Assembly (NCBI GenBank): GCA_017654855.1
Contig: CM030335.1
Span: 2,232,001-2,296,000, forward strand
Reading direction: 5' to 3'
Length of the DNA stretch: 64,000 nt
Source of the DNA: Podospora anserina
Taxonomy: Eukaryota
A program made the translations under genes and the position numbers. This document shows, one piece after another, positions 8,271-43,909 of this stretch (position 1 is its first letter; each line of letters starts with the position of its first letter). Below the pieces are notes generated by a model. The model was not told the origin of the DNA. It ran no database searches and saw nothing but the letters and a program-made list of their open reading frames with translations.

Positions 8271-10199
8271 ATGGCGCCTAAACAACGTAAACCCACCCCA
8301 GGGTCCTCCTCAGCTTCGGGGTCCGCCCCCGCAAAAGCCATTCCCCATATCGACCCCAACAGTTCCTTCACCCCCGAATCTTTCAAGAAGGAACTCGAGT
8401 CTCTCGCTCAAAAAGCACAGTCTGAGACGACCTTGCATTACTTGACAGAGCAATCCATCATCTATCTCAAATCAGCCGCCTTGCTCTCCCTCATTGCGCT
8501 GTACTCCACCGTCTCTCAGCTCAATCTCTCCCCAACTTACGGCTCCATTCCATCATCGAAATGGCACTCCAAGCTTATCATGGCCGGGTGTTTCGCTGGT
8601 TGGTCAACTAACCTCACTCTCAACCGGTTCTTGCCGTTCAAGCCTGAGAAGCTATTGCCCCTGCTGGCCGTTTATGTCCCCGTCGTCCAGTTCTTCTTGG
8701 GGAAGGTCAGCTCAACACTGACGGCACAATGGGGACCTTTGATCACGGAGGGACTGACGCTATTACCACTGGTGACAATCAGTGCGGCTTGTGTGGCTAC
8801 CTACCTCGAGGGTGCAGATTTGCCCGACTTCTTGCCAAGTTGGATTCGGGACGCCTTGCCAGGACTGGGCGGTTATGGGTTTTACAAGCTTTCAGAACAG
8901 ATTCTGGGCGGGTTGGCCGAGGAGCATATTGGACAGTCAGTGTTAAACACAAGAGTGGGCATGGAGCTGGCATTGGCCGGAAGTTATGCGGCTTTGGCGC
9001 CATCAAAGTTGCTGGTTTTTGCTTTGCCAGCCCTTTTGCATACGGCGCTGCTGAACACACATCTTCCTACTGGAAATGCGCTTGCGAACTTGAACAAGGG
9101 TTTGGAGAGCGTTGGTTATGTGGTTTTGGACAGGAAGGAGAGTTTGACGGGATACGTCTCGGTTGTGGACAGCCCGAAGGAGGGATACAGGGTCATGAGA
9201 TGTGATCACTCTTTGTTGGGTGGTGAGTGGGTCAAGTTCTTGAACCAGGGACAGTTCAAGGGCAACCAGGTTGCTGAGCCTATTTATGGTGTTTTTGCCA
9301 TGCTCGAGGCAGTGAGATTGGTCAAGACCCCTGAGAAGATCAAGGATCATGAGGCGAAAGCTCTCGTCATGTAAGTGATGTTGCTGTCTGTGGCTCCATG
9401 GACGGTGGAAAGCTAACATTCATCAGCGGTCTCGGCATCGGCACCACCCCCGCTGCTCTTGTGGCACATGGCATCGACACCACTGTCGTCGAAATCGATC
9501 CTGTGGTGCATGAATTTGCCCTCGAATATTTCCAGCTCCCCAAGAACCATACCGCTGTCATTGAGGATGCGGTCACTTACACCTCCCGTCTGGCAGCTGA
9601 CGAAAAAGGGCAGCGCTTCGATTACATCGTCCATGACGTCTTCACCGGTGGCGCTGAACCCATTCCCCTCTTTACTCTCGAGTTCCTCCAGAACCTGAAC
9701 GCGCTGCTCAAGCCAAACGGAGTCATTGCCATCGTACGTAACACATTCTTATTTTACTCTTGCTAACTTGCTAACACCATGGCAGAACTACGCCGGAGAC
9801 TTCGCCCTCCCCCCACCCCGCATCGTCACCAACACTATCCGCTTTGTCTTCCCCGCTTGCCGTGCCTTCCGCGAGCACCCGCGCGACATGGAGGATTTCA
9901 CCAAGAACCAGAGGGACTTCACCAACATGGTCATGTTCTGCACCAAGGATACTTCTGGAGAAGTCAAGTTCAGGCATCCTAACAACAGAGACCTGCTAAA
10001 CAGCCCGTCGAGACAAGCGTTCTTGTATCCTCAGCATGAAGTCAAAGAGGAGGACTTTGTCAAGGCTGAGGGAGAGGCTGAGGGAGTGTTGAGGGCGAAT
10101 GCTACCGAGAGATTGGTCAAGTGGCATGAAAGCAGTGCGATGGGGCACTGGGGCATCATGAGAACTGTGTTGCCGGATGCGGTTTGGGAGGAGTGGTGA
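8271..10199 (+). CDS. Membrane-anchored spermidine-synthase-like SAM-dependent methyltransferase
   Basis: Introns 9371-9426 and 9734-9785 join three ORFs. N-terminal TM helices, ESLTGYVSVV, RCDHSLLGG, SAM motif ALVIGLGIG, VEIDP and DYIVHDVFTGG. Confidence 0.88.
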
Positions 10200-13100
10200 G
10201 TGTTGGTCGAGGATATTTGTTGTAAATTCTGTGTAAAAGGGACTTGGGGAGGTAATTTCTGTTTTGTCACCGTGCTGGCTTTGGATGCTGTGCGTTTGAT
10301 CAGTTTGGCGAAGCTGAACTGAGGGGCGTTGGGGCGTTCTTCGTTTGTTGGGTATGTCGCTATCGGAACATTGTTGGATATCGTCGGTTTGAGCAATCCT
10401 TTCATGCTTGTTTATGATTCCCAACGTCTTGCCAGCGGACTGAAATATCAGCTAGCTCGCTTTGCAGCTGCTTCCCTCCTGGTCAGGAGCTATGTGGTCC
10501 CGTGTCGCCAAACCCACTACTGTTTCTCCCAGCCAGCAGCTCAGTTTCCACCTGACAAAGAGGTTTCTATCAAAGCGCCATCATTCTGCCAATTACAGCT
10601 CAGCACAAACGCTGCCACCAAACAAGTTCCAATGCCAAACTCTCATGGCACACCGTACGCTTTCACCCTGTTGCCAGCAAGCAATCAACGCTTGTTAGGA
10701 AGTGGTGACGTAAAGCAGACACCGCCAGGGCAAGAGCATATAATCCCCCAGCTGCCCCCGCTCAATCCATCCATCCACTGCATCCTGAACAGAGTTGACC
10801 AAATCAGATACCCTTCTCATCCCCTGGATTTATCGACCAATTGATCATGCTGGCTCGAAGTTTTAGATAAAATCACATCTCAACAACACAGACATCTACC
10901 TCATCCACCAGATCCCACCTCACCTTGCCTAGCCACCTCACCTCACCTTCCACCCAACAACAATTCACCTTACACGACTGGACCCCGAGCATCCGTCAAT
11001 CAGCAAAGGAGAATGGGCCAAGGAGGAGCTAGGGACAGGAGTTCAATTAGGGTGTGTTAACCCGAATGGTGCGTTACTAACCTACAAACTTTGCTAACTT
11101 GACCCTGGAATGTGTCAGAGCTCTGGTATGGAGTTGGTCTGAGAGACAGGAGGCTATCATATCATCCTTCACCTCGGCTGGACTTTATCCAGTGCAGCAG
11201 GCTCAGGATGAGGCGTCACCTAGCAGCCACAATACCGCTCCAAATCCAAGGCCATATACCTAGCCCGTCAGCTCTACATTTGAGTAGCAGTATGTGAGTC
11301 TAGCAGAGCTGTGATGAGCGCGTTGGTTGTGGTGGTTGGGGGGCTAATAATGGGTTAGGGCGGGATGCCTGGACGATTACCTACTGGCTAATGGGATGCG
11401 CCTTCGGAGCAACGCTGTGCACATCGTTGTTGGTCCTTGGCTTGAGCTATCAGACATCTTACCAACTAAACAAGCACACCGCATTCGACATCTTCAGAAT
11501 TGCAGCTCCGTCCGCAAAATTCAGGCCGCCTTTGTCTGCGTTCAACCTACCAACCAGCGTATTTGACGCCACAGTTAACACCAAACGAAGTATGGCTACC
11601 TGTATATATTGATCTTCTTCATTTTTGTTTCCACCTACTTACTCGCCAACGGAAGAGGTCTTGCTATACAGGATCGTCTCCACTGCAGAATAATGCCGCA
11701 CGAGTGTCTGCTCCGGCGACTCTGAATCTGGCAGACTTAGCCTTTACCAGGACCAGCCTCCCTCCAGTCTCTTGAATCATACACCATACACCTGTATCGT
11801 TTCAAGCGCGGTCGTGATGACTACGAAAGAAACCTCCGACAACTTGCAATTCTCATGACGACTATCTCCTCACTGGGCAAGCCCAACGGCACCACTTTTA
11901 CTTCTCGGGGATTTCACAACTTACCTTATTTCACCATCAACACACATCAGTGCCTATATAGAACCCCCTTTTTCCTATGTCAGATGGTGGCCGCACTCTG
12001 ACGGTCTCCAGTAACCACCAACATCCATACCGTCTTACCTTATCTTTCCTACCATACAAGCCAACCGCTTCCACCGATGCCACCTCTGCGGATATCCTCC
12101 ACCAAGCACCGAGTGTTCAACTTCTCCCAGCACCAAGATCTGCTTCAGGATGTCAGGTAACTACTTGAAACAGAACCATCGGGAGATGTTGTTCCCCTGG
12201 TTGAATGGGTCAACCTCCGGTCGGCAAGACATCGTCTTACCAAGAACCAGGAGGAAGTTGGATTTCTTGAGTCTGGGGCCCATTACATGCGGGTGAGACT
12301 TTTCTTTCCCATTCATTTATTCCTACCTACCTTATCTTAGTTGCCATTGCCGCTTTCCTTCAAAGAGAGAACCGGTAACAAGAGCCCGATACACAAGCTG
12401 AACAACTGGAGCAAGCACTACCTTCGCGACGTCAACCTCGGGACAGGCGTGTCATGGCAGTACGATGCACTCTGTCAGGATATGCTCCCAGGCTCAACAG
12501 GACCCTTTGGCGGAACTTTTCCAGAGTCACGGCAACTAATTTACCAACTACGTGTTTTATCGAGACACATTTCCGACAGAGGAGCTGATGGCCAAAAGAC
12601 TTCCTCTGACACGGACCTGGGGACTGATGGATAATGAGATTCTTGTTCAGTTCCGGATTCTTTTATACTTATCCTGATTTCATTTCACTTGCCTCGTTGG
12701 AGCACACTTTACTTTTGTCTTCACCCTACCTACCTACACAAAGGCATACCTGGCCGCCACATGATCATGCCCAACCTGTCAGGCCCCGCCACTTGGAACC
12801 GAAACACGAACCTGACCTACACCTACCTACCTGCAACTACAGCCTCCGCAGTGTCGTCCCCCTGAGCGTGGAAGGATAAAATGGAACCAACACAGCTACG
12901 GGGACGCAAACCCCATCCAAGAACAAACACATACAGGTACCCATGCCAGATTTGGATGAGCTTTCTCTGTCCTTCAGCCTACACATGGACATTAAGCAGT
13001 CTGCGTCTCATAACTACTTATTCTTGGACACCGAGTTCAAGATTCAAGGCGCGGGCCGCAGAGACACCTACCTGGCCTTTCATACCTACCCTGGGCATGA

Positions 13101-15197
13101 AGCAAAGTGTCTACGTGGAAAGTCTGAGAAACCTTTCCGACGTCCGAGTTGCTGTCATATCTTGGCAGCTCCTAGTACGTGAAGCTTTTTTGGTCGCGCG
13201 AGTTCACTTTCGTACTGACTTGAAATAGGGCAAGATCCTTGATGCGCACCGCCGACTGGAATCCTAACCAAGAGTGCTGGTTGACACAGTGACAAGAACG
13301 ACATACGTACCTACCTATGTGGGGCACCTGCAAGGCCCACCTTTCACCAGACCCCACACTGGTGTTTGCTTTAAGGCTGTGTGGGGCAATAAGTGGGGAT
13401 TGGTGGAGAACGATAATTTATAGGCTTTGCTCAGTTTTGGGGGGGAAACTCTCTCTCTTATCAATACAACGCTTTTCCTCCTCAACTTTGATGATATTTT
13501 GCCTGGTGATTCGAGCCCACGACGACCTCCTACAGCTGTTTTCCTGTTTACCTTTTACACTCAGAACTCTTACTAAGAACAACTCTGTAATACCAATTTT
13601 GTTGATCAATTTCTTGCTTTCCTGACCTCACTTTCGCCGGCAACGACTTTCCTAGGCCGTTGCCCAACAACCTAGTTCTTGCTCTGGAGTCTTGGGCAAA
13701 GGTCAGAAAGCCGAGGTAGTGCACTACTACTTTGAGGTAGTCCATCCACCCATTTACATCTTATTTTGGATAGCAGTTGGTTGCACGTCTCGATGAGGAC
13801 GGTGAAGTCAGCAGCTTGTGGACGCAGCTCCTGCAGCAAGTTGTCGGCAGTCATCAGGTCATTGGCGCTGGCAAGCTCATTACAACCCCATGTCGCAGGG
13901 GCAACATGGATTGATTACAGATATTTGGACACATTTTACTGCTTGGTGTGCTACCTGGGATGCCACGATTCCCGCTGAATGTCGCATTTTGGGTTTGTTT
14001 TTAACACTTGTAAGTTTTCTGTTGGCTGTGCCAAGTCAATGTTGACATTGCCCCTTATTTCCCCTGAGTGCCAAGGCGTTAGTGGTTGGGTTAGGGTTAC
14101 TGTACGAGACAGCGAGGGTGATGGAAGGAATGTTTTGAAATCATTGGGATCAGGGTTTTGTCTATTGAGCGAAAGGTTAAGAGGAAGGAAGTAGAATATT
14201 TTGAGTCAGATTACTCTTTAAACCAAGAGAAGGATTTAGATAATTTTTGTTTCTTTGGAAGGAAGTTTAAGAACTTCAAGGTGACCATCCAAGCTCTCTT
14301 CGTCATCGCCCTCGTCAGCATTAAGATCCGGCCGTTATCAATGGGATTGTTGCCATCAACTATCATTCTCTTCCTCTTCATAAAGATCCCAGCATTGTGG
14401 ACAGGATGTCCAATGGCACATATCGTTCACAGCTCGTCGCCAGAAGAATCACTATTTCGTCTGAACCTACCTCGGGGCTCAATAGGTGCGGGAAGGAAGG
14501 AGCAACAAATCTTCTGCGCCTACCCACGCTGGAGGCCAACGGAGCAGCGAGACGAGACGAATTTGAGTCGGGTGACTTGGGGATGTTGAATTTCAGGGTG
14601 TGCATGTATATAATCTGGTTATCCCGATGGACATTACGATCCTGAATAAACAGTCTCAGTAGTCTCTTGAATGCTTTGGGAAGGCATGCAATGGGAACTC
14701 TGTTGGGCCAAATGCTAGCCGAAGTGGCCTCAGGGATTCCGGCCTGGTCAAAAGACTAGATTTCAAAAGAAATGGGTGCAGGGCGCGAAATCTAAAGGCC
14801 ACGCAACCAGGTTTCACTGTACGGGCAGCCCGACGGCTTTTCTTTTCATCCCAGCAAGCAATTTGAAAATTTGCATTTCGTCGCCTTTTTTTTCGCTGCA
14901 CCTCTAAAGGTCTAGTCCTTACAGTTCTTATTGACCTTATATACTATCTACGCGCATAATAATGGGGTATATTAACACAGTGAAGCAGCTCGTTATAGAG
15001 GCGATTGTGCTCCATACCTACCTCGCTTACCTCTATGTAACCTGACAACTGTTTCTGGCCTCAGTCCCAAGTTCGATTGCCGTTCCCTTACCCACGGCAC
15101 CTCCCCACGCCACTCTATGGTCATGATCCAAACCGCATATCTTATCCTCTTCTCACACTGAATTGTGTCGAAGGAAGATTGTCGTATTCGACTCCAG

Positions 15198-15425
15198 ATG
15201 GGAAACCCAAGGGGAGCTTTTAGAACCGCCCTGGTAATCAAGAACAAAAGACCCCCGGCAGCGAGCGTCACGGCAACCATGACGACGCTTGGATTCGCCA
15301 AGGGGCCAAGGCAAGACGAAAATCATTGTACCCTCTCTCCTCCCTGGTACACGACGAGGTTCAATCGACACTCGCGCCCCATAGCGTGGATCAAGAACCG
15401 GGAGACAGGCCCAGGAGGTCGTTAG
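15198..15425 (+). pseudogene. Divergent copy A of the ~87-aa Cys/Trp domain family
   Basis: PPWYTTRFNRHSRPIAWIKNRETG aligns with PPGFYAHDWKHTGRPVR(W)KKDWETG. The N-terminal Cys motif is absent. Confidence 0.55.
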
Positions 15426-16488
15426 ACGATTCTCACAAGGTGTGAAGGTACCGGTAAGCTGGGATGCTTTTGTTTTTAGCTGGCCGATTGCTTGGACATG
15501 AGAATCGACGTAGTTGATAGAGCGATCCTACTAGACAAGGTCATTATGAAACCAAGAGTCGTCGAGGATGTCACTTTGACAATGAAGAAGGACATATACA
15601 AAAAGGATGACTGCAACGGAGGTAAGCTGCTTGATAGTAGCCTTGAGTATCCAGATAGGCATGTGTTGCACAAGTCCTCGGACCAATTATGCATAGTATA
15701 TTTGCGGCTTAAAGCTAACTTCTAGAATAAGCCTGAGCCTTGGTGGGGGGCTGTCTGCTGCATTCGTGTGGCGTCTTAACTCTGGTCTATGGAATTAGAT
15801 CTTTAGCACCCTCTATCAATGTGTTGACACAGAGAAACATACTCCAGGTAGAAATAGGATGGGGAGGTATAGGTATATGTCTATGAGCTCCTTTCGCAAA
15901 AATACTAGATCCTTCTTACTTGGGAAGGTACCTGTATCTCAGTCGTGAGAGTCCCGGACGAAGTCTTGTTAGTGCAAAGCAAACTTACTGCCAGCGAGAG
16001 TTTATATCTCTATTCCTTCAAAACTACCACCAAAGTTCAATAACCACAAGGTAAGCAAGCTATTGATGCAGCGGATTGTGAAGTAAACTGACAGTAATAT
16101 CAAAGGAAGAGCGACTTAACATCAGAACAGCAAGTACATCACCTCTCTTTTGAAGATACCCACGAACCACTGCCATCTGATATTAGTTTTGGCGGCGTTC
16201 TTGGCTTTGGTTTCAACTTGCGTCCAATGTATCTAGTCTGAACTGCTTGTTATCCCAACAGGCATATAAATAGGTATTCAAGGGAATGGATCCTATTTTG
16301 GGTCCGGCGTCAAGTGAATTTTGTCCTGCGGGCTTGCTCCTGTCCCCACAATTCCCTCCGTCCAGCAGCGCTCTTGAGCAGCTCTTATCCCCTTCTTCTG
16401 TCCGTTTCCTCGCGACTGTCACCAAGACCTCCAACCACGCAAAGAAAACTCCAATTCGACTACACACAAATACAGATTTTATCACAAC

Positions 16489-16755
16489 ATGGCCTCAACT
16501 ACCGACAACTCCACGTACCTGCGCCGCTGCCAGTGTGACCGTGATGAGTGTGAAAGAAATCTGCGACGCCTTGCGATACTAATGATGACGAATTCATCAC
16601 TTCATAAGCCTAATGGCGCTACCGTCACTCCCCCCAGTTTTTCCACGCGCGACTGGCTACACATCGGATGACCCGTCCGTTGGATCAAGGACTGGGACAC
16701 TGGGGTGATTCGCAGACGATGTCTGATGGACGACCTCTGGGATAAGCAGGAGTGA
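16489..16755 (+). pseudogene. Copy B of the ~87-aa Cys/Trp domain family, with an internal TGA
   Basis: CACAACATG start. MASTTDNSTYLRRCQCDRDECERNLRRLAILMM...KPNGATVTPPSFSTRDWLHIG*PVRWIKDWDTGVIRRRCLMDDLWDKQE*. The TGA at 16669-16671 replaces the conserved Arg. Confidence 0.8.
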
Positions 16756-17372
16756 ATTCGGACCTCAGGTAAGTCAACATCATCAGAAACTATCGGTTTA
16801 GGGCCAAGTATCAGAGGCTAGTGACGAATGATCAAATCATGTTTCATTTTGGGTTATTCGGAGCGGCGGCAACGCGAAGTTGCGGATATGAAGCCACCAA
16901 AAGTGTCACCAAATCATTCTCTACGTACGTATCGCCTCAATTTAATAAGCAATTAAACTTTCATTGAGCATATTTCCTAACCATAATATGTAGAATTGAA
17001 CTACCACGCTGAATCGACTGCATAGAGACATGAGCTTCAGGTTGTTTTCAAAAAGGAGCTCGAGGAGGAGTCTGGGAGTTGAGAGCAAGAGAGCATTTGA
17101 TAACAGCACCCAGCATGTTGTATTTTCCATTTTGCGAAATTTGTATTGTAGAATGAGTGTTCGACATTGCCTACCTACCTTACACCGGCCTTGCATTTCA
17201 TAAATACATCAACCCGCAAACAGTCCCCTGTTTTTTCTATTTTACCCTCTACGTAAGGTACGCACAATCCTAAACGTGTGGTCTGCTCGACATGTCCAGA
17301 ACAGACAATCGCATGCATCATCTCGAGCCCTGTTCACCACGGCCACCATTACCGCGCATCTATAAGAGATAG

Positions 17373-17660
17373 ATGGAACCCAGCTTCAGCCCGCCTAAGG
17401 TACCTTCGGTTTCTCTTACGAGCAAAGTCGTCACTATCGACAAAATCAAGGAGATGCCGAAGGAGTCCAGGACCACGAAAACCTGGGACATAGAAGAAGA
17501 GACTGAAAATGTGTCTTTGGGCAGCGCTTATCGTCGGACGCCATACTCACTTTCGCAAGTTCCGAGGGGGGCCTGCCCACCTCACCTTGGCTTTTGGAGA
17601 CATGATTGGCAGCCTAGGCATTGAACGTCCTGTTCGCTGGATCACTTGGAGAAGACAGGT
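17373..17660 (+). pseudogene. Degenerate copy C of the Cys/Trp domain family, frameshifted
   Basis: GFWRHDWQ followed, after a frameshift, by IERPVRWITW, matching the family core. Confidence 0.55.
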
Positions 17661-18149
17661 AGAAGACTTTGACTTTAGATAACTTCAATGACGAGGACCT
17701 CGAGAGTACAAAGTAAACAATGACTTCATTTCACACATCAACAGCGTGAAACTAGCTGTGACTGAAAGGATAGAGACATCGGGATTCTTCAGATTTGAGA
17801 GCTTGACTAGACGTCTTATGTGGTTTGTCGAGTCATCATTCATAACTGTGACTGAGCATTTGTTTATCATTCTACAGTTACGCCGGGGGCCAGGTCTCCA
17901 AAGACCTGTACCGGACTGCTAACATCCGCGTAGGAATTGCTGTTGGTCTGTCAGCACGTGCATCGTTGCGTCTGGATTGCTCGGTTTATGCTTCCGGTCA
18001 ATATTTCATCTGAGCACTCTTCCTTTTTTTATTAATCCCCCCACTTGTTAGTGCAAAAGAACTATTCCCATCGGCAATCACACTGGTACTTGCAACCACA
18101 CTTCCTGACGCAACTTCAGTTGCTTCACCCACATAAGGTAGCCACAAAA

Positions 18150-18668
18150 ATGACCGCAAACACCACCGAGGACCACAAGCTCCGCTGCCAATGCGGCAGA
18201 AGCGAGTGTGAAGAACGAAACCGGAGAATGGCCAAGATCGCGATGGCCGTTGCCTCGGCCTTCCTACCCAACGGCGCGACGCTGGTCCCTCCCGGCTTCT
18301 ACGCCCACGACTGGAAACACACCGGTCGCCCGGTCCGCTAGAAGAAGGACTGGGAAACCGGTGTTGTCCGACCCCGCAACTTGATGGATGATCTCCATGA
18401 TCAAATATCCATGTCCGTCTCAGAAGATCATCAGCCACGCTGCCAGTGTGGCAGGGATGGATGCGAAGCAATTAATAAACACATGGCCACAGTCACGATG
18501 GCCATCGCGTCAGCTTCGCTTCCGAACGGCAGCACCGTCAATCCCCCGACCTTTTACCAGCGTAACTGGCGACACACCGGACGTCCGCTGGTTTGGAAGA
18601 AGGATTGGGATACGGGCGTTGTTCGACCACGCTGTCTCATGGACGACTTCCGCGAGAAGGATAGGTAG
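18150..18668 (+). CDS. Two-domain (2 x ~87 aa) Cys/Trp protein interrupted by one in-frame TAG at 18339-18341; edited gene or pseudogene
   Basis: CACAAAAATG start. Domain 1 (18150) and domain 2 (18411) are in one frame, 261 nt apart, and align end to end. The TAG falls where domain 2 and copies A, B, C, E and F have Trp. Confidence 0.8.
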
Positions 18669-19223
18669 GTGCAGAATTAATGTCTTGATTCTTCGCGTAG
18701 AAGGAATTACATCTGACTCTGTCATAGAAAACCACCAAATCATGAAGATCGTTGAGTTGCTGTTGGTCACGAAGGTCCAGTCTGTGGTCAGAGCCTGGTG
18801 AGTGGCAAAAGAGACTCGGTTCTGACTTTTGAGTAAAATCACAGCACAGATTTCATTAACGGTTCTTGGGATATATCCTCAGATTATGGCAACCAACTAC
18901 AAGTCGATCGTAATCACCGGAAGAGCTAGTACGATAGGGCACTAGGTGGAAAGGTTGAGTGAAGGTACGGTTTGAGTGGGACAGTGTAGGTAGGATAGGA
19001 AATGGGAGAGTGTACGATATGCCTATCTTTCAATTCTCTCTCGAGTGCCCTTACTTTTGAACCTAGACACTCAGAAACTCGGGTCTATACCTTTAACAAG
19101 TTAAACCTGTCAAACTTAGAAAAGTGGGAATCTTTAACCCCCTTCCCCACTACACGTTTATATCCTACAATACTCGCCAAGCCACTCGAGAAAAACACTT
19201 AGACTTAAGATTTTGAGATTCTT

Positions 19224-19313
19224 CCCTTCTTTCCCCTTCTTTCCCCTTCTTTCCCCTTCTTTCCCCTTCTTTCCCCTTCTTTCCCCTTCTTTCCCCTTCT
19301 TTCCCCTTCTTTC
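19224..19313. repeat. Tandem 10-mer (TTCCCCTTCT) x ~9
   Basis: Pure pyrimidine tandem array, directly visible. Confidence 0.95.
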
Positions 19314-19669
19314 TTTCCTTTGCTTCCACAGCACAGTACTACAAGACGACAATCCCAGCTTGTCTTGATATGACTCCAGATCTTCGGGGAACCATATCAT
19401 ATCTCTCAACCCATCCCTAGAATGTCACAGCCACAAAGCTCTCACCATGGCGACCCCTAGCATCCACCGCAACAAACGACACTCTAATGGTGAACACCAA
19501 AGAGAACCGGCGGATGACCGGTCATCGGGCCCGAAGTGGGTCCGGAAGATGATCACCGCCAATATATTTCACCCTCGTTGTCCAACCTCTCCTGAACATG
19601 ACGAAGTGGCAGAATGATGAAAACCAACTGAGCCGCCGCTGCCGACACCCATCGAAGGTCATGTGGAGC

Positions 19670-19748
19670 CAGGGTGGGCAGTAAGTCAAGTCAAGCCAAG
19701 TTTGGAGTCTTACTTGGTTTGACTTGACTTGACTTACTGCCCACCCTG
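19670..19748. mobile_element. 79-bp hAT-type MITE (non-autonomous DNA transposon)
   Basis: Perfect 26-bp TIR CAGGGTGGGCAGTAAGTCAAGTCAAG at both ends. 8-bp target-site duplication TGTGGAGC at 19662-19669 and 19749-19756. Confidence 0.9.
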
Positions 19749-20031
19749 TGTGGAGCTTGATGCCAATTGGATAGCATTCAAAAGAAGGAGGGCTGATGAT
19801 GACGCATATTGCGATCACAGAAACTTGAATACACCCGGCCAGAGTAGAAAAAAGGTTGTGGAAGAAATTAAGTTTAGGGATTCACGATAAGAACTTATTT
19901 GTCTGCCTATACAGTCTCGATGAGTAAGATCCCATTTCAACGTCACCCCTTCAGCTCTTCATCTTTTCAGACATCTACCCCTTTTTCTTGCGTCTATTTC
20001 TTCAGCCAACAGTCACCTAGGTAGCTGTAAG

Positions 20032-21420
20032 ATGCTTCACAGGGGACTGGCATTACACTCGCTCAAGACCGCCCTGGAATCATATGGAGGTCAACATTCA
20101 GCTTGTATTGATATGTATGCAATTAGTAAGATTTATGATATATTTATTCATTCCACACCCATACCAGCATCAGGAGACAGCCATCTCTACAGAATGCAAG
20201 GCCCTGCTGGGACTCGTCCCTCCAACGGTAGAAAATAGGGATTTCTTGACGCAACGAGCGACTTTGCTAATGGTTTAAGGTGGTGGTATAGAGTATTTAT
20301 GAATATAACCAGCCCTGGAACAACGATCCCTTTTGACACATTCAAAACTCATCAAGACATATTGAATCAGTCCCCCGCGTGGTTGGAAATTGGACCACAA
20401 TTGAAAGTCTGCTAGTTTCTTCCCCTCTCTTTTGTCTGATACTGACGCGCGCTGGTACAACACGGAGTTGGCTCACGCTACCAGAATTGCGTCCCCCCCC
20501 CAAACGATCCGAAGCGTTACCGCGCGGTCCGCGAATCCGTCCCAGTCTCGCAAAAAGAAAACAAACATTTCCAAAATTCAAAAGAAATGGCAAGATGTAT
20601 GTATCGGATTCCCAGAACTTGAATCTCCTGTCATCCTTCTGACATAAATACCAACCAGGGGCAGACCTCAAATGCGCAGAACCCCGGTCACCAGAAGACC
20701 GATGATGAGGAGAAAGCCTCAGATTTGGCGGAGAGCTTTCCTGAGTTTGAGCATGTGATCGGCTGTGTTTGTGGCGAGATCTATGAGGGAAGACTACGAG
20801 CATTAGCGATCACAGTGATGACTCATGATTTCCCTCGGCGGCTACTGATTTGGAAGAGAGACTGGAAGTCGGGGAAGATCAGTTCCCGCAACAAAATGGA
20901 CGACATATATGAGAAATGAAGCCATGCCGCGAGATTCCATGGCGATTTCAATTTGGTATCTCAAGGTACGATACATGACCAGTCGTTCCTTTTCAGTTTC
21001 TCTTATGACAGATGAAAGTCTTAACATGTTGGAAATAGGTGACCTGGACTTTCCAAAACCCTCTATCGAGGAGAAGAACCTTACAGCGTTGGAAGTTTGC
21101 GGCAGGAGAGGGTGACTGTGGTTGTGGTCCAATCTGCGAGGCACGACTTTGGTCCCTTGCTATCACTGTCATGCCACATCAAGCGCGCCATAAACCCAAT
21201 GGAACTATAGCATCGCGCCCCCTAAGCTCGATAAGAGGACTCGCAAGTTGTCGAGGCGGCCTTTGATGTGGAAGCAGGACTGGACTCCCAGAAGCTCAGG
21301 CTCACATTGGAATGACAGAGGTACGGCGTTTTGTCCGTCACCGGGCGAGAGTCCTTGCATGGAAAGACCATACGAAGGAAAAGGGCAAAGGGCTGAACTT
21401 GGAGGATGATTCCTATAGGA
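20032..21420 (+). pseudogene. Degenerate multi-exon gene ending in copies E, F and G of the Cys/Trp domain
   Basis: Intron 20597-20658 (GTATGT...CTGAC...CAG) joins KKWQD to GQTS...CVCGEIYEGRLRALAITVM...RRLLIWKRDWKSGKISSRNKMDD (E, ends 20919). F: CGCGPICEARLWSLAITVM...KPNG, frameshift, RRPLMWKQDW (21110-21283). G: RHRARVLAWKD...NLEDD (~21320-21420). Confidence 0.6.
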
Positions 21421-21492
21421 TACCCAAGGGACGGGGTCATGGATCAAATCTCATGTTCACATTGCGCTTTTAGAACTTCAGGCTCTCATTAA

Positions 21493-22554
21493 GTGCTTAT
21501 GCAGGAACCTATAAGGTCATCTCAGCTTGATTTACTTGGCATTCATCCAAAGATCTATAATACTAACGAGTGGGTACCAAGAATAGCGGCTTCAGTCCTC
21601 TGTCGAAGGATGGCTTGTTCCAGCCTTCCGTCTCTAAATCAGCAACTGCCTTCGCTTTCCTCGGCCTTTTGCTCCAGAAAACCCCAACCAGACACAGTTG
21701 AAAGCGACCACCTCATTACAGAAACCTCGCATGGTAAGGTTTGCGTCATCATGAAGTTGCCCAACATCGCCGCCCCAGCGTTGATGCCGTCTCCTCACAT
21801 ACTTCCGTCCAGCTTCGGCCTTGAGGCCACACCTTGAACTCCTCGCCAGGGCACAAAGAGACACGTAAAAGTGTCCTCAGAATCCCTTAACCAGGATCTC
21901 AAGCGTCGTACCACCGCATCCTTACCGCCGTCCTCCGAACTACTCCCGTCCGGCCGTACCCGCGAGGAAACGGAGGCCCGTCCTGCTCCCAAGGCGCACC
22001 AAAAGGAGTATCAACTCATCACCGCTTTCACGCACCAGATACAAGCGTCGCAACACCGAGGACTTGGACAACGACCAAGGGAACTTTCATACAGCCAAGC
22101 CTCCGGTCAAGCAACAACGCGTGACGGAATGTGTCCTCTCAGCTCGTTCCAAGCGTCCTTGCCTGTGTCATCTACACCCGCTCACAATGACACCCCGGAT
22201 GCGACTCAAGCTTCACAACAACCCAAATGTCCGACTCCTGATCGCGAGATTTAGGTTCCTGCCAGCCCAAGCCCCGTGATTTACTCTCTTGTCTCGTACA
22301 AGCTGGGGCCAGAGATCAGGGAAAGCTCTCCGGGCAATGCGCAGCGGATTCTGCTCAAGTAACAAGACGAAAGATTATCACTGCTTCGATCTCGGCAAAT
22401 GTTTGTCCCATTACAGGCTATACGACAAATGAGTTTAGTGAGCCGGAAGAGGGATATTGCTAAGTATCTTGAATGTGATACTTGCAAAATGGGCTTGGAT
22501 CAGGTCAGTTGGATCTCGATCGTTCTTTACAACTGGGGCATGACCGAAGACTGA
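21493..22554 (+). pseudogene. Possible pseudogene: long S/P/T-rich frame with three in-frame stops
   Basis: ORFs 21493-21837 and 21871-22254 and the downstream sequence share one frame broken by TGA, TAG and TAA. No family recognised. Confidence 0.35.
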
Positions 22555-24122
22555 CAGTGTACAAAGCAGCTTCTTGATTGAGTATATCGACCTCAATTTC
22601 AACCTGTCTTTGAGCCGACGACATCATGAAGAAGAGCTCTACTGGACCCTACTGAGAATCAGTATTTGCAAAGCGGAAGGAGATAAACCTCCAGTCGTGA
22701 TTCGAAGCTGATCTGGAGCGGAGGGGACAAGATCGTGTCAAAAAGGTGGAGGCTTAATGGAATTTTATCCACACAATTTGGGTCGTGAAGTTGCTCTGAG
22801 ATGGGTGTTTGCGATTTGTGAGGAAGCACGGTGAAGATGAAATGATACTGTAACGCAGTGCTCTTGTCACACTTCATTGTGTGTACATATTTGCTTGATA
22901 GCAACTTTGCCTATGAAAGTGACAAAGCAAATGCATGCTGTGAGCACGAAATAATGTTGGAGCATGTGCAATAAGGCCAGCTGGAGCTGGGCCGGCAAGA
23001 GATGATGGTGCAAACGTCAGGGCCTAGAGTCATGTGGGCGAGAGCATCTGACAAGTTTGTAGTTATGATTCCTCGGCGGAAAAGCAAAGAGGGTGGCTAC
23101 ATCATGGTAAAGATACGAACGCCACAGACGCGGGACTGCGGGTTTGGGCTGTGGATAGTGTATTATGTGCAGTATTGACTGATAGCGTTTGCTCACAAAC
23201 GGACGAGGCTGACCGTAACTGTGAGTGGTCCACAGCAACTCTCGGAGCTGGGGCAGGACGCCGGTTATGTGGCTGCCCGTCAAAGATCATCTCGGCGGGA
23301 TGACCCTTCTCTGATAACAGCTTGTGAATGACAACAGATGATGTTACATATAAAGAGAAGCCCGGAATATTCTGGTGTTCCCGGAAGACGTATCCGAGAC
23401 ACCCATCCATCCAATAGCGCAGGGCTGCAAAAGAAAGGTCAACTTCAATACCTGCAATAGCGGTGTGTAAGACGGGACGACTGTGTGCCACACACCAGCC
23501 AGTTGCCTCGGCCACGTCATTTCCTTCTCCTGATTGGTGACTTAATGCTTCCTTCCTTTTTGTCCAAATTTTGAGCCATCACCAGAAAACCACAAACATC
23601 TATGAAGACAATCGCCTCGGGCAGCTATGCCGCGGTGAAGCAGCTGTGTTACCGACCTTGTGGTAACTCCCGAATCCACCATTCGAGTGTGCCAAGATTG
23701 GGGGCATTTTCAACCGTTAAGCTCAATTCAGTAGTAAGCTGGTACACTAGGTACGTTCCTACGTTGACGCACAGACCACACACCGTTCATCGTTTATTGC
23801 GACGTCAATGATATTTGTTGCCCACTTACTGCATTGAGGCCTACAAGAAAACAGCAGCTGGCATGCAGCTCTTGTCGCTGCCTGACGTTGGGCAATCACT
23901 CATTTAATTTCTACTATATATACTCTCCACTCTTTTATCCTGTTGTTGTTTCTTCACGTTGCCATCTCCTTCCTCCTTCTATCCCGGAACTCTCGTTTGA
24001 GCTTCTGTTTCTCTGCCAACCCATCAAGTGGTGTTTGGAAGGGATTGAGAAGTAGTCCGCAGCAGTATTGTTGAGGACTCACCTTCCAACACCTACCGGC
24101 GTATTGATGCCCAACATTTACA

Positions 24123-27100
24123 ATGTCCGACGTTCAGGGTCGTGACATAGGCCGCCTGGGACGTGGCCGCGGGGGACGTGGCCGCGGTGGGTTTGAAGAT
24201 AGAGGCGGCCGAGGCGGAGGTGGTTTTGGGGATAGAGGCGGCCGTGGCGGTGGAGGAGGCGGTGGTGGAGGCCGCGGTGGCTACGGTGATCAACGCGGTC
24301 GTGGTGACCCCCGCGGCGGCTTCCGAGGTGGTCGTGGCGGCTTCAATGATCGTGGGCGCAGAGGTGGAGGTGGCTATGGTGGGGGTCGAGGAGGAGGAGG
24401 AGGAGGAGGTGGTGGTGGTGGTTATGCTGGTGGTCCAGATGTTTACACGTAAGTATCACGGCACCGTACATTGTCATGATGAATGACAGGCGCTAACATC
24501 AAATCAAGAGGAGCGAACAACGTCATCCCCCCGCCAAATCCCGACATCACAGCTCTGGAAGACCGCGTCGTCCAGCAAGAAAACTCTGCATTGGGACAGT
24601 TGAGCAAGCTTTCCGTCAGTGATGAGTCCAGCTTTTTCCCACACCGGCCTGGCTTTGGCACTGGTGGTGCTCCGGTTGTACTGTGGGCCAACTACTTTGA
24701 ACTGAACGTCAACACAGCCTCGCTATTCAGTTACAATGTGCTGGTGGCCCCGGAGGAATCTAGCGAGAAGAAAGAGGCCGAACCGAGCTCTGCTAAGGGC
24801 AAGGGCAAGGGAAAGCCCAAGGAGTCCAAGACCAAAGAAGCCAAGGGTACCAAACTCGCCAAGATCATCAAGGCTGCGCTCGACACACTCCCGCCTACCG
24901 TCGTTGTTGCAACCGAGCTGAAGATGAGCGTCGTCTCCAAGGCGAAGCTTCCTCTGCCCCCCAACTCAGTTATTACTGTGGGCATCCCCAGGTCCAATGG
25001 TGGTGAGGAGCGCTGGGATGTTAAGTTCAACGACCCTGTCTCGCTAGATATTGGACGCCTCAAGCAGTACATTCAGAACTTTGAAGACAAGGGTAACGAG
25101 TCTGTCTTTCCCAAGTTCGCGGCCGAAGCTGATGCGCTGGGCGTTGTGCTCGGCCACACCGCACGAAGCAACTCCAACACCGCTGCCGTTGGCAAGAGTC
25201 GCTTTTTTGCTTTCGACGCCAATCGTTCCGAAGTCGGCCCCGTATCGCCAGGCAGTATGATCGATATCCTTCGCGGTTACGTTCAGAGTGTGCGGTTGGC
25301 CACCGGTCGTCTGCTTTTGAACGTCAACGTTACCCACGGTGTCTTCCGGCCGCCCATGCCCTTGCCTGACCTGTTTCAGAGGGTTGGTAACCTCAACACG
25401 AATACACTCAAGCGCTTGCATGGGCTCTTGGCCAAATCGAGAATCCAGTGCCGGGTTCCCACCGAGAAACCTGGTGAGTGGGTGAAGGTTGAGCGCTCTA
25501 TGGCAGGATTCGGCGGGGTTAGAGATGGCAGCGGCGAGGAACGGAGGCCCGAGTTTTTGGAACCCAACGAGTACTTCGGCAAGCCTACCAACGTCAAGTT
25601 TTTTCTTCGGTCGCCCAAAAAGCCGAGACCGGCACCCAAGGGGCTCAAGTATGACACCATGGTATTGGTGTCTGACTATCACATTGCCAAATACAGCGAC
25701 TCCCACGGGGTGCGCAAGGTCGAGACTTTCCCACTGATCAACGCGGGCAGTCCAGCTAGGCCCATTTACCTGCTGGCTGAGTGGTGCTCCCTTTTGCCGG
25801 GACAGCCTATCAAGGCTAAGCTCAGTGCCAGCGAGGCTCAGAGCATGATACAGTTTGCATGCCGAAAGCCATCCTTGAACGCTGTGTCCGTTACCACCAA
25901 TGCCAGAGCTGTTCTTGCACTGGACAACAACAAACTCCTGGAGAAGTTCGGAGTGAGTGTCGATAAGCAGCTCATCACAGTCAAGGGTCGTATGCTTCCA
26001 CCCCCGGCCATGGCGTACCCCAAGAGGAATTCGGTGGAGCTGATCAAGCCCCAAGATGGCGGCTGGCTGCTCAAGGGTGTAAGGGTTTCAAAGCCTGGTA
26101 GGATGATCAAGAACTGGACGCTCTTGGAAGTACAAGGCCAGGCTGATCAGCATGTCAAGGCCACCATGGGCGAGTTTGCGGTATTCATGGCGCAGAGCAT
26201 GGGCATGGCTATCAATAAGAATGCCACACCGGCAAGTGGCTATGAGGTCGCTTCTATGGGTGAGCAAGACTTGAGAGCCGCTTTTCAGGGGATGAAGCCC
26301 AAGCCCGATCTGGTGATCGTTGTGCTTGGCGACCAGGACGCCAACGTATACAACACGGTGAAGAAGCTAGGCGATGTCGAGTTCGGCATTCAGACGGTGT
26401 GCGTGGTGAGGAACAAGATAACGAACAATAAGGGATACTTTACCAACGTCGCGCTCAAGGTCAACCTCAAGTTTGGCGGCGTCAACCACAAACTGCAGAA
26501 CGCTCATCCTCTGCTGAAGGGTGGCAAGACCATGGTGGTGGGTTACGATGTGACACATCCTACCAATCTTCCAACAGGTGCTGGAGAGAACGCGCCCAGT
26601 CTGGTCGGTCTTGTAGCCAGCATCGACTCGGATCTCGGACAGTGGCCTGCTATCGCTTGGCAGAACCCGGCTTCGTGTGGAGCAGCTTGACGTCAAGCTG
26701 GCTGAGAACTTCAAGTCTCGGCTGCGTCTGTGGCAGAAGCACAACGGTGCCAAATTACCTGAAAATATCCTCATTTACCGCGATGGTGTAAGTGAAGGGC
26801 AGTTCAACATGGTTCTGACGTCAGAGCTGCCGCACATCCGGACGGCTTGTAGCCAGATGTATGGCAAGCAGCAACCACGCATCACCCTTATCGTGTCAGT
26901 CAAGCGCCACCAGACTCGATTCTACCCGACTGATCCCCAGCAAACGCACTTCAGGTCGAAGAGCCCCAAGGAGGGCACCGTTGTTGACCGCGGAGTGACC
27001 AATGTGCGATACTGGGACTTCTTCCTCCAAGCCCACGCCTCGCTGCAGGGCACCGCTCGTCCGGCCCATTACACGGTGTTGATCGATGAGATTTTCCGGC

Positions 27101-27351
27101 CTTCATATGGTGCTCAGGCGGCGAACAACCTCGAGCAAGTAACGCATGATATGTGTTACCTGTATGGTCGGGCCACGAAGGCAGTTAGTATCTGCCCCCC
27201 GGCGTCCTACGCAGACTTGGTCTGTGATCGGGCTCGGATCCATAAGCACGAGCTTTTCGATGACTCCAGCACCATTGCCTCTGGGGCACAAGACACGGTT
27301 GGAAGCAGGAAGGTGCACCCGAGCTTGGAGAATTCCATGTACTACATTTGA
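24123..27351 (+). CDS. qde-2: Argonaute, QDE-2-like, with RGG-rich N-terminus and a +1 frameshift near 26672
   Basis: RGG exon 24123-24448, intron 24449-24508. Motifs RPGFGT..LWANYF, RLLLNVNV, GQP, LKVNLKFGGVNH, GYDVTHP, YRDGVSEGQF, KRHQTRF, QGTARPAHY, RATKAVSICPPA.YADLVCDRAR and the C-terminal MYYI. Confidence 0.93.
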
Positions 27352-43215: not shown

Positions 43216-43909
43216 GTCCAGCTGATGGTGCGGGTCACAGTCGTCAGCGAGGGCGACGGATGTGAGCTGCGCCTACGGTGACACGAGGTCTAGAAAGCCT
43301 CTCCTAGTGGCGATGGGAGACGCGAAGGGGTGGTGTTGCGCAGATGTACGGTTGAGGTCGTCAGCTCTGAGCTCTCTGCCTTGTGTGTACTGCCACACTT
43401 GGGTCGGCAAACACAAACAGGTCTCAGGAACGGAGACTCATGGAGTGTGAGGTGAGTTGAGGTCGCCGGGTCTCGATCTGCGGGGTGCTATCTGCAGGCC
43501 TCCCTTGGGGAAAAGGTAAAAGAATTAAGAATTGGAATTGGGTTGATGAGGCAGAGTCGGTGAGGCAATCGGGGAGGTCCCCTGGGGTCCAGAGCGGCAG
43601 TTGGACGGTTGTTATGGAGTTTTTTGAGGGTGAGGCAGTGCAAGCAACGCTATAACATTTGTTTCGAGGTCCAAGATGTCTGGCGCGTGCAGTTACCAAG
43701 GTCGTACTCCAACAAAAGAGCAAAGGAGCGTGATGAATGGAAAATGGGACGAAACAAAGCAGGAAGCAGCAGGGAAAGTGAAGCCGCGCAGAACCACTGA
43801 CGACACAGCGGCTACGAAATTGGACCTGACCTGACCTGGAGACGGAATGGCCTGGGATGAGATGGGAGCTGTGTTTTCCCCTGTTGTTGGGACCCAAAAG
43901 GTGCCAAGA

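Follow-up and report, generated by a model that had tools for sequence, protein, structure and literature searches.

A tandem cluster of domain paralogues in Podospora anserina with a candidate premature-stop-correction gene

Upstream of an Argonaute gene of Podospora anserina, several diverged copies of one small protein domain follow each other in tandem within the window analysed here, a stretch of 64,000 nucleotides (nt) of contig CM030335.1 (positions 2,232,001 to 2,296,000 of the forward strand). The region from about 11.8 to 21.3 kb holds, with little doubt, tandem paralogues of a single gene family, in a cluster that is decaying. Two adjacent copies, D1 and D2, are proposed to form one live two-domain gene, in which an in-frame TAG in D1 may be corrected by adenosine-to-inosine (A-to-I) editing of the mRNA. 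As an account of the whole locus, a decaying cluster that still holds an edited D1-D2 gene is the explanation towards which we lean.

Copies of the domain and their decay

For the window, a family hidden Markov model (HMM) was trained on copies B and D1 together with 33 homologues from other organisms, and the decayed copies were left out. Positive scores were obtained on the + strand only, with 92.6 bits for B, 86.2 bits for D1 and 102.5 bits for D2. The decayed copies scored lower: 13.0 bits for A (15333-15410), 17.5 bits for E (20824-20916), and 10.4 bits (21132-21221) plus 9.3 bits (21209-21286) for F. A half-copy at 11807-11902 reached 3.8 bits and a stray place at 43757-43813 0.8 bits, and ten shuffled versions of the window scored -0.6 at best. 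When D2 was used as tblastn query, D1 (60% identity, E 1e-33) and B (54% identity, E 7e-26) were found, and weak matches were obtained at A, E, F and a further site, 11789-11917. With intact proteins of foreign species as queries, the E copy was matched at E 9e-23 and the F copy at E 6e-17.

The earlier note on this DNA had proposed eight copies on the + strand, where stop-to-stop frames do display the motif at the sites named, and six of them (A, B, D1, D2, E and F) are backed by these results, all on that strand. Copies C and G were dropped, their scores being at chance level: at C (~17590) no positive HMM score was obtained and the DNA alignment to B scored 31 against 32 for the top shuffle (z 2.8-3.1), and G (~21335) likewise had no positive family-HMM score, its sole tblastn row with the D2 query having an E of 2.1. 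An extra N-terminal half-copy on the + strand at 11789-11920 had been overlooked; it was detected by an HMM of B, D1 and D2 (E 1.5e-8) and by DNA alignment to B (z 22.8). The features are collected in Table 1.

Table 1. Coordinates of the domain copies and of associated features in the window.
Feature	Position	Strand	Description
Half-copy	11789..11920	+	B-like N-terminal half, Cys positions lost; in last exon 11656-12106
Copy A	15174..15430	+	Full-length remnant with at least one frameshift; tblastn in two frames
Copy B	16489..16755	+	Single-domain gene; ATG 16489, in-frame TGA 16669-16671, normal stop 16753-16755
Copy C	17547..17665	+	Doubtful; collinear with B, not above chance
Proposed D1-D2 gene	18150..18755	+	Exon 1 18150-18664, GT..AG intron 18665-18727, exon 2 18728-18755, stop TGA 18753-18755
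Domain D1	18150..18404	+	21/22 conserved positions; TAG 18339-18341
D1 hairpin	18313..18369	+	Predicted RNA fold presenting the TAG
Domain D2	18411..18665	+	Sole copy with open frame and all conserved positions
Copy E	20500..20919	+	Long-N-terminus type; tblastn with P0012 and P0011
E-F intron	20966..21038	+	GT..AG, 73 nt; splice ends checked
Copy F	21117..21286	+	Nearest P0012, 80% and 60% identity in two pieces
Copy G	21335..21409	+	Unsupported

The description of the cluster as a tandem birth-and-death family in which almost every copy is broken held up: the duplicates are old and most have now decayed, with D2 intact. In B the in-frame TGA replaces an Arg that is invariant in 34/34 rows of the family alignment, and two substitutions (Y49S and P73R) add to this lesion. 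Apart from its frameshifting, copy A has lost the conserved P38, G40, D65 and W66. Copy E has no start codon, contains a TGA at 20620-20622, and has lost the third Cys and acquired three further substitutions; a gap of 21 codons extends over the PNG..PP..Y part, where intact relatives have the domain core. Copy F is split over two frames by at least one frameshift and its tail is decayed. A, E, F and the half-copy at 11.8 kb are dead, and B is very probably dead as well. Repeat-induced point mutation (RIP), for which the index thresholds are about 0.89 and 1.03, was rejected as an explanation of the decay: between 10 and 24 kb the indices were 0.63-0.90 (TpA/ApT) and 1.12-1.37 ((CpA+TpG)/(ApC+GpT)), like those of the flanks, and the lesions of the half-copy include transversions.

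Among B, D1 and D2, DNA identity was 69-75%. Synonymous sites were saturated (proportion of synonymous differences, pS, 0.60-0.85) versus 0.24-0.31 for the nonsynonymous proportion (pN), and dN/dS was 0.34, not around 1, for the single pair in which dS could be computed. Accordingly, the duplications are old, and purifying selection acted on the copies for a long time, as had been suggested. D1 and D2 are sisters (support 95/92, and 85 in a second tree) with B as their outgroup, and E groups with P0011 and P0012 and with the intact genes of Apiosordaria, Cercophora and Triangularia. The cluster thus keeps two old lineages, a long-N-terminus type (E, F), which is intact in these three genera, and a short type (B, D1, D2), which among database proteins is found in Podospora only.

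Transcription of the cluster was followed in contigs from four runs (X1, X2, X3 and X5), three of one study and one of another. Runs marked 'RNA?' do hold spliced RNA, because the contigs carry GT..AG joints. Contigs drop minor variants, and the contig-free parts (A, C, D1 and 14.6-16.4, 17.4-18.2 and 19.2-20.1 kb) bear neither way on expression. Over B, contigs of X1, X3 and X5 (two studies) span 16443-16907 and show no mismatch to the window, so the TGA of B is in the RNA; a 69-nt 3' intron (16925-16993) was seen in X2. At the end of D2 a 63-nt intron (18665-18727) is spliced out in one X1 contig, which yields exactly the C-terminus of the proteins of the sister species. E and F are part of one RNA, with the joint of the 73-nt intron present in X1, X2 and X3; E is covered by X1 and X2, and contigs span 21037-21483 over F. 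Contig depth over B, D2, E and F was low (3-9). A well-expressed, spliced RNA, represented by contigs of X2 and X5 (depth 73 in the latter), has introns 11051-11117, 11290-11358 and 11590-11655 and ends in exon 11656-12106, which holds the half-copy in a frame closed by upstream stops.

A few differences between RNA and window were recorded: a C>T change within the half-copy (11883), the loss of 3 nt at 20493, and position 13388, where contigs of three runs read G and the window has A. The latter lies just 3' of an inverted repeat of 8 base pairs (bp; 13352-13359/13379-13386), has C as -1 base, and represents a difference between strains or else an edited site. From these three differences the public RNA probably comes from other strains, which share the TGA of B.

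A domain family of the Sordariales

The motif is not restricted to this locus and turned out to be the core of a domain present in hypothetical proteins across the Sordariales. A word-index search with D2 returned one cluster: P0003-P0006, hypothetical proteins of 102 amino acids (aa) from four named Podospora anserina complex species, which share 96% identity with D2 and carry the UniRef label 'Post-SET domain-containing'. An exhaustive phmmer search with D2 over 1.84 billion representatives gave 35 matches at E<=1e-3, of which 10 reached E<=1e-10. P0033 and P0039, which on reading are bacterial repeat proteins, were left out of the family, and 33 related clusters remain, in which the core is the C-terminal domain of uncharacterised proteins. 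All matches with names (among 20 looked up and some others) are hypothetical proteins of Sordariales, from Podosporaceae, Chaetomiaceae, Lasiosphaeriaceae and Sordariaceae, Neurospora crassa included. Members sharing the domain are for example Apiosordaria backusii KAK0742479 and KAK0742480, Cercophora samala KAK0673015, Triangularia verruculosa KAK4198630, Neurospora tetrasperma NEUTE1DRAFT_112581 and N. crassa GE21DRAFT_8675. The consecutive accessions KAK0742479 and KAK0742480 suggest a tandem pair like E-F. These listed relatives are intact single-domain proteins with long disordered N-termini, whereas their counterparts in the window, E and F, are broken.

The basic core of ~65 aa reads E..LR..A...M, then PNG....PP.(W/F)Y, then RP..W(I/K)KDW.TG.(V/I)RPR..DD, and is usually preceded by a long low-complexity N-terminus. 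In the alignment 8 columns are invariant and 9 nearly so; the former are E19, G40, P46, R58, P59, D65, R72 and P73, and A26, M30, P38, K64, G69, R74, D78 and D79 are conserved at >=90%. D2 agrees with every core column, D1 with all except for the TAG at W62, and B misses 3; A, E, F and the half-copy agree only in part.

The Cys residues, previously counted as part of the consensus core, are not: the three Cys occur in 6/34 aligned rows, all of one clade, and these rows form one clade together with the window copies (tree support 97/95). A His four residues before the first Cys is found in all 6 database rows and in D1, D2 and E, not in B. The resulting H-x3-C-x-C-x4-C knuckle, also present in KAK0742479, KAK0742480, KAK0673015 and KAK4198630, is an addition in front of the domain made by a Podosporaceae subclade to which every copy of the window belongs, and it could hold zinc. 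The same C-x-C-x4-C spacing occurs in the Post-SET motif and was seen in D1, D2, B, P0008, P0009, P0011 and P0012. The Post-SET motif follows a SET domain, which supplies the fourth zinc ligand. Unlike it, the motif of the family is N-terminal to another domain and confined to one clade, and a scan of the 34 members at E<=10 found no SET domain. The Post-SET label thus fits the Cys spacing only, and is most likely an automatic pattern match.

That the domain fits no recognised family was borne out by all searches made, and neither a curated family nor a transposon profile was matched. Pfam gave nothing for D2 or for the pre-stop N-terminal parts of B and D1, and no Pfam family was common to the 34 rows even at E<=10. 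A sequence-profile search of the PDB returned one row with E 1.5, two look-ups in the ESM Atlas gave no usable match, and the locus tags of four family members occurred in no paper text found. AlphaFold2, applied to D2 with the 34-row alignment, produced a confident model (mean predicted local distance difference test, pLDDT, 85.5; predicted template modelling score 0.70) with a helix at 16-33, a beta-hairpin of strands 62-64 and 71-73, and a helix at 76-84. Neither Foldseek against the PDB (none at E<=0.001, best E 2.5) nor VIA-align against 48,161 chains (none at Z>=5, best 2.8) recovered a similar structure. The family therefore spans a whole fungal order and lacks a Pfam entry, and its predicted fold is unlike any solved structure.

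Regarding function, the small predicted fold carries conserved Arg, Asp and aromatic residues, and the core has a median isoelectric point of 9.75, with a basic cluster upstream in 10/34 rows and an acidic tail behind in 9/34, and as a tentative guess the domain might be a protein- or nucleic-acid-binding module of nuclear proteins. Complex prediction with two D2 copies gave a score of 0.00, which bears neither way. Fused forms were searched for among proteins of 644-2000 aa and none was found, which is weak evidence. A resemblance between 'PNG..PP.F' and the PPF/HPG motif of MAT1-1-2 proteins was considered, then dropped because no such Pfam family appeared in the scans. Intact two-domain proteins are represented elsewhere by P0007 and P0013; the two domains of P0013 are sisters of each other, so the doubled domain arose more than once.

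The proposed D1-D2 gene and its in-frame TAG

If the TAG at 18339-18341 is read as Trp, D1-D2 gives a product of 180 aa; otherwise the product is the protein of 102 aa from ATG 18384. P0003-P0006 match the 102-aa model at 96%, and the two-domain protein P0007 aligns to both halves (E 2.4e-25). The codon corresponding to the D1 TAG is TGG in B and D2, and its column holds W in 30, Y in 3 and F in 1 of the 34 rows. This TAG is the single defect of D1, which is otherwise intact. D1 has 7 private amino acid changes versus 11 in D2, and 41 private nucleotide changes versus 30 (Tajima chi-square 1.7). Having fewer private amino acid changes than D2, D1 has not drifted like a dead copy. In a structural model of the two-domain form, with the TAG as Trp, both halves adopt the same order of secondary structure and D2 is very confident. 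The gene models of the four sister species start at the first ATG after the TAG, which fits a stop shared with them, though these species are very close.

The TAG lies in the 10-nt loop (18337-18346, with the A at 18340) of a predicted RNA hairpin with two stems of 8 bp each (18319-18326/18357-18364 and 18329-18336/18347-18354). A 41-nt fold around the site, containing one 8-bp stem, had -21.7 kcal/mol (z -4.0, 0/200 shuffles), and a 61-nt fold, to which the second 8-bp stem is added, had -34.4 kcal/mol (z -5.8, 0/200 shuffles). The equivalent sites in D2 and B are unstructured (z +0.9 and +0.4). With respect to 41-nt stability, the D1 site ranks 1/973 among the TAGs on both strands of the window; at 61 nt one other TAG is as stable, and its A is not in a hairpin loop. 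When the peptide was kept fixed and synonymous codons were drawn at random, the D1 fold was reached in 1/5000 recodings weighted by codon usage, in 0/5000 uniform ones and in 3/4000 with a second seed. The same test on the equivalent segments gave 3512/4000 for D2 and 1391/4000 for B.

In fungi, A-to-I editing in the sexual stage prefers hairpin loops with U at -1 and A or G at +1 and +3, and PUK1 and 70 further Fusarium graminearum genes need UAG-to-UGG correction for full-length proteins (PMC11156358). The same source lists Neurospora and Sordaria (both Sordariales), Fusarium and Pyronema as genera for which editing is reported (PMC11156358). The flanks of the D1 TAG (-1 U, +1 G, +3 A) agree with this preference; only the +3 base is independent, because -1 and +1 follow from the TAG itself. 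The sequence features of a premature-stop-correction (PSC) site are thus all found in D1: an in-frame UAG at the Trp of the relatives, suitable flanks and a predicted hairpin loop. The TGA of B was considered as an editing site as well and rejected, since editing would give Trp at the invariant Arg, the -1 base is G and no hairpin is formed.

We propose that D1-D2 is one live two-domain gene. In vegetative mRNA, translation would end at the UAG (18339-18341), or only the 102-aa D2 protein would be made from the next ATG. During the sexual phase, A-to-I editing of the ADAT type (adenosine deaminase acting on tRNA), as in other Sordariomycetes, would turn the UAG into UIG, read as Trp, which would restore the conserved Trp of the family and give the two-domain protein of 180 aa. 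The hairpin with the UAG in its loop would be the recognition element. Judged from its sequence, D1-D2 is probably such an editing-gated PSC gene, and the stop in D1, taken for decay in the earlier note, is probably not a sign of it, given its place at a Trp codon in an outlier hairpin.

The PSC genes of Sordariomycetes, such as those of F. graminearum, resemble D1 in several respects, having an in-frame UAG at a Trp position of conserved coding sequence, U at -1 and A/G at +1 and +3, the adenosine in a hairpin loop, and a gene that looks pseudogenic (PMC11156358). They differ in that editing does take place there, whereas here it is predicted from sequence in an uncharacterised family, and in that the downstream ATG of D1-D2 permits a shorter unedited product (PMC11156358). 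A second parallel is rfk-1 of Neurospora Sk-2, which encodes a 130-aa killer made only after editing of an early UAG (10.1101/2020.12.30.424869). Both are small Sordariales protein genes with an early UAG, and in rfk-1 editing leads to a longer isoform in the sexual phase (10.1101/2020.12.30.424869). In rfk-1, however, the edited stop extends the C-terminus, whereas in D1-D2 two domains would be joined; the two genes are likened by description (10.1101/2020.12.30.424869).

Should editing take place, D1-D2 would be a structure-marked 'pseudogene' that is really stage-gated, in a model fungus for which we found no editing survey. The hairpin would offer a ready substrate for what the fungal editing enzyme recognises, and genome annotations in the Podospora complex listing nothing but the 102-aa D2 protein would need completion. 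Editing aside, an unannotated Sordariales domain family has been defined, as a candidate for a new Pfam entry and a structure target. The tandem array itself and its nearness to Argonaute are ordinary.

Competing explanations and the surroundings of the array

The most serious competitor takes the TAG for a recent nonsense change of the ordinary kind (G-to-A transition, TGG to TAG), with D2 alone being a gene of 102 aa and the hairpin coincidental or unrelated. We regard this as unlikely, although a number of points count against editing and several of them suit this explanation directly. Single nonsense changes do occur in the cluster, as one such transition has turned an Arg codon of the neighbouring B into a stop. 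Annotators call a D2-only gene of 102 aa in the four sister species. RNA contigs of the four runs cover neither 18340 nor any of D1, the nearest one covering the end of D2 and the intron. No text on mRNA editing in Podospora was found, supplementary tables being outside the search, and editing in this genus is extrapolated from relatives. Six stop sites were folded, so that a P of ~2e-4 to 8e-4 becomes <= ~5e-3 after correction, and the hairpin could be due to chance or serve another purpose. The D1 half of the two-domain model is of moderate quality only (block pLDDT 45-83), most alignment rows lying on D2, and beyond composition the domain offers no functional clue.

A nonsense mutation leaves the hairpin as an extreme outlier (1/973 TAGs, at most 3/4000 recodings), whereas the D2 and B segments are ordinary. 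It would also have had to fall exactly on a Trp codon and to produce TAG, the sole kind of stop open to repair by editing. D1 furthermore carries no second lesion, whereas B has three. These points keep editing-gated correction of D1-D2 ahead in our judgement.

It is improbable that the whole cluster is dead or dying, D2 merely not having been hit yet and the transcripts being read-through or noise of a gene-poor island. Such an end stage would fit 5 to 7 broken copies or candidates out of 9, the shallow contigs over B, D2, E and F, and the island itself: from 10.85 to 24.1 kb, where G+C is lower than in the flanks, only four stop-to-stop frames of >=150 aa were found, none with a family match, and no long frame lies in a sensible gene. 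D2, however, keeps all conserved positions, is precisely spliced (one contig), is open and 96% identical in four other species, and is predicted to fold with high confidence.

Least probable of all, together with its more specific form, is a conflict locus (allorecognition, spore killing or antiviral defence), perhaps acting with Argonaute, in which an arms race drives turnover of the copies; in that form D1-D2 would be an editing-gated selfish or conflict gene active only in the sexual phase like rfk-1, its long isoform being an ascus or ascospore poison or an incompatibility factor and the wrecked copies remains of the arms race in a family of new fold and function. Tandem birth and death of small lineage-restricted proteins, a stop perhaps edited only in the sexual phase, as in rfk-1, and an array ending ~2.8 kb before the first coding bases of Argonaute at 24108 would go with such a locus, but the duplicates are old and conserved rather than fast diversifying, the family is widespread and often single-copy-like in Sordariales, and the aligned family proteins, B, D1 and D2 contain no HET, NLR, toxin or other known conflict domain. 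The conflict-locus character ascribed to the array earlier also found no support in transposon or other Pfam families in the same proteins, nor in a RIP signature. No paper describing this locus was found, supplementary tables again being outside the search.

The Argonaute gene was confirmed by matches to Piwi, ArgoL1, ArgoL2 and ArgoN at 24483-27348, and its Gly/Arg-rich frame starts at 24108. Between array and Argonaute lie at least one further transcribed unit, at 21792-22528, and the Argonaute leader from about 23418. A hook for Argonaute was looked for as GW/WG (glycine-tryptophan) repeats in a disordered stretch, and none was present in the copies read. With another transcription unit intervening and no such hook, the connection to RNA interference, called speculation in the earlier note, stays pure speculation, and a link of the array to Argonaute is unsupported. 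The Gly/Arg-rich stretch (24108-24452) is built on 15- and 33-bp repeats. At the joint 24201/24268 one RNA contig skips 66 nt with the non-canonical ends GA..TG, which looks like a repeat-length difference or an assembly slip, not an intron. Further genes flanking the island are those of an Nramp protein, a pyridoxamine-oxidase-like protein, an aminotransferase, a kinase, Sir2, a P-type ATPase and others.

Several minor observations concern the rest of the island and its upstream border. Rfam gave nothing usable over 10.8-24.5 kb. The spliced RNA that ends in the half-copy exon is ~2.1 kb long and extends over 9699-12106 (depth 73, one run); it covers two frames with no Pfam match (9699-10196 and 10323-10841) and has at least three introns in its 3' part, where no continuous frame was found. 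Among the best-covered RNA of the island is 13480-14325 (contig depths 18-35, three runs), part of which overlies a frame of 155 aa (14122-14589) with no Pfam match. At 13618-13669 (52 nt), contigs of three runs from two studies depart from the window on both sides, with loose ends of up to 255 nt; either another locus has the same piece or distant exons are joined to it. Finally, between D2 and E a 10-bp C/T-rich unit is repeated nine times without mismatch (19224-19313), with a local GC skew of -0.46.

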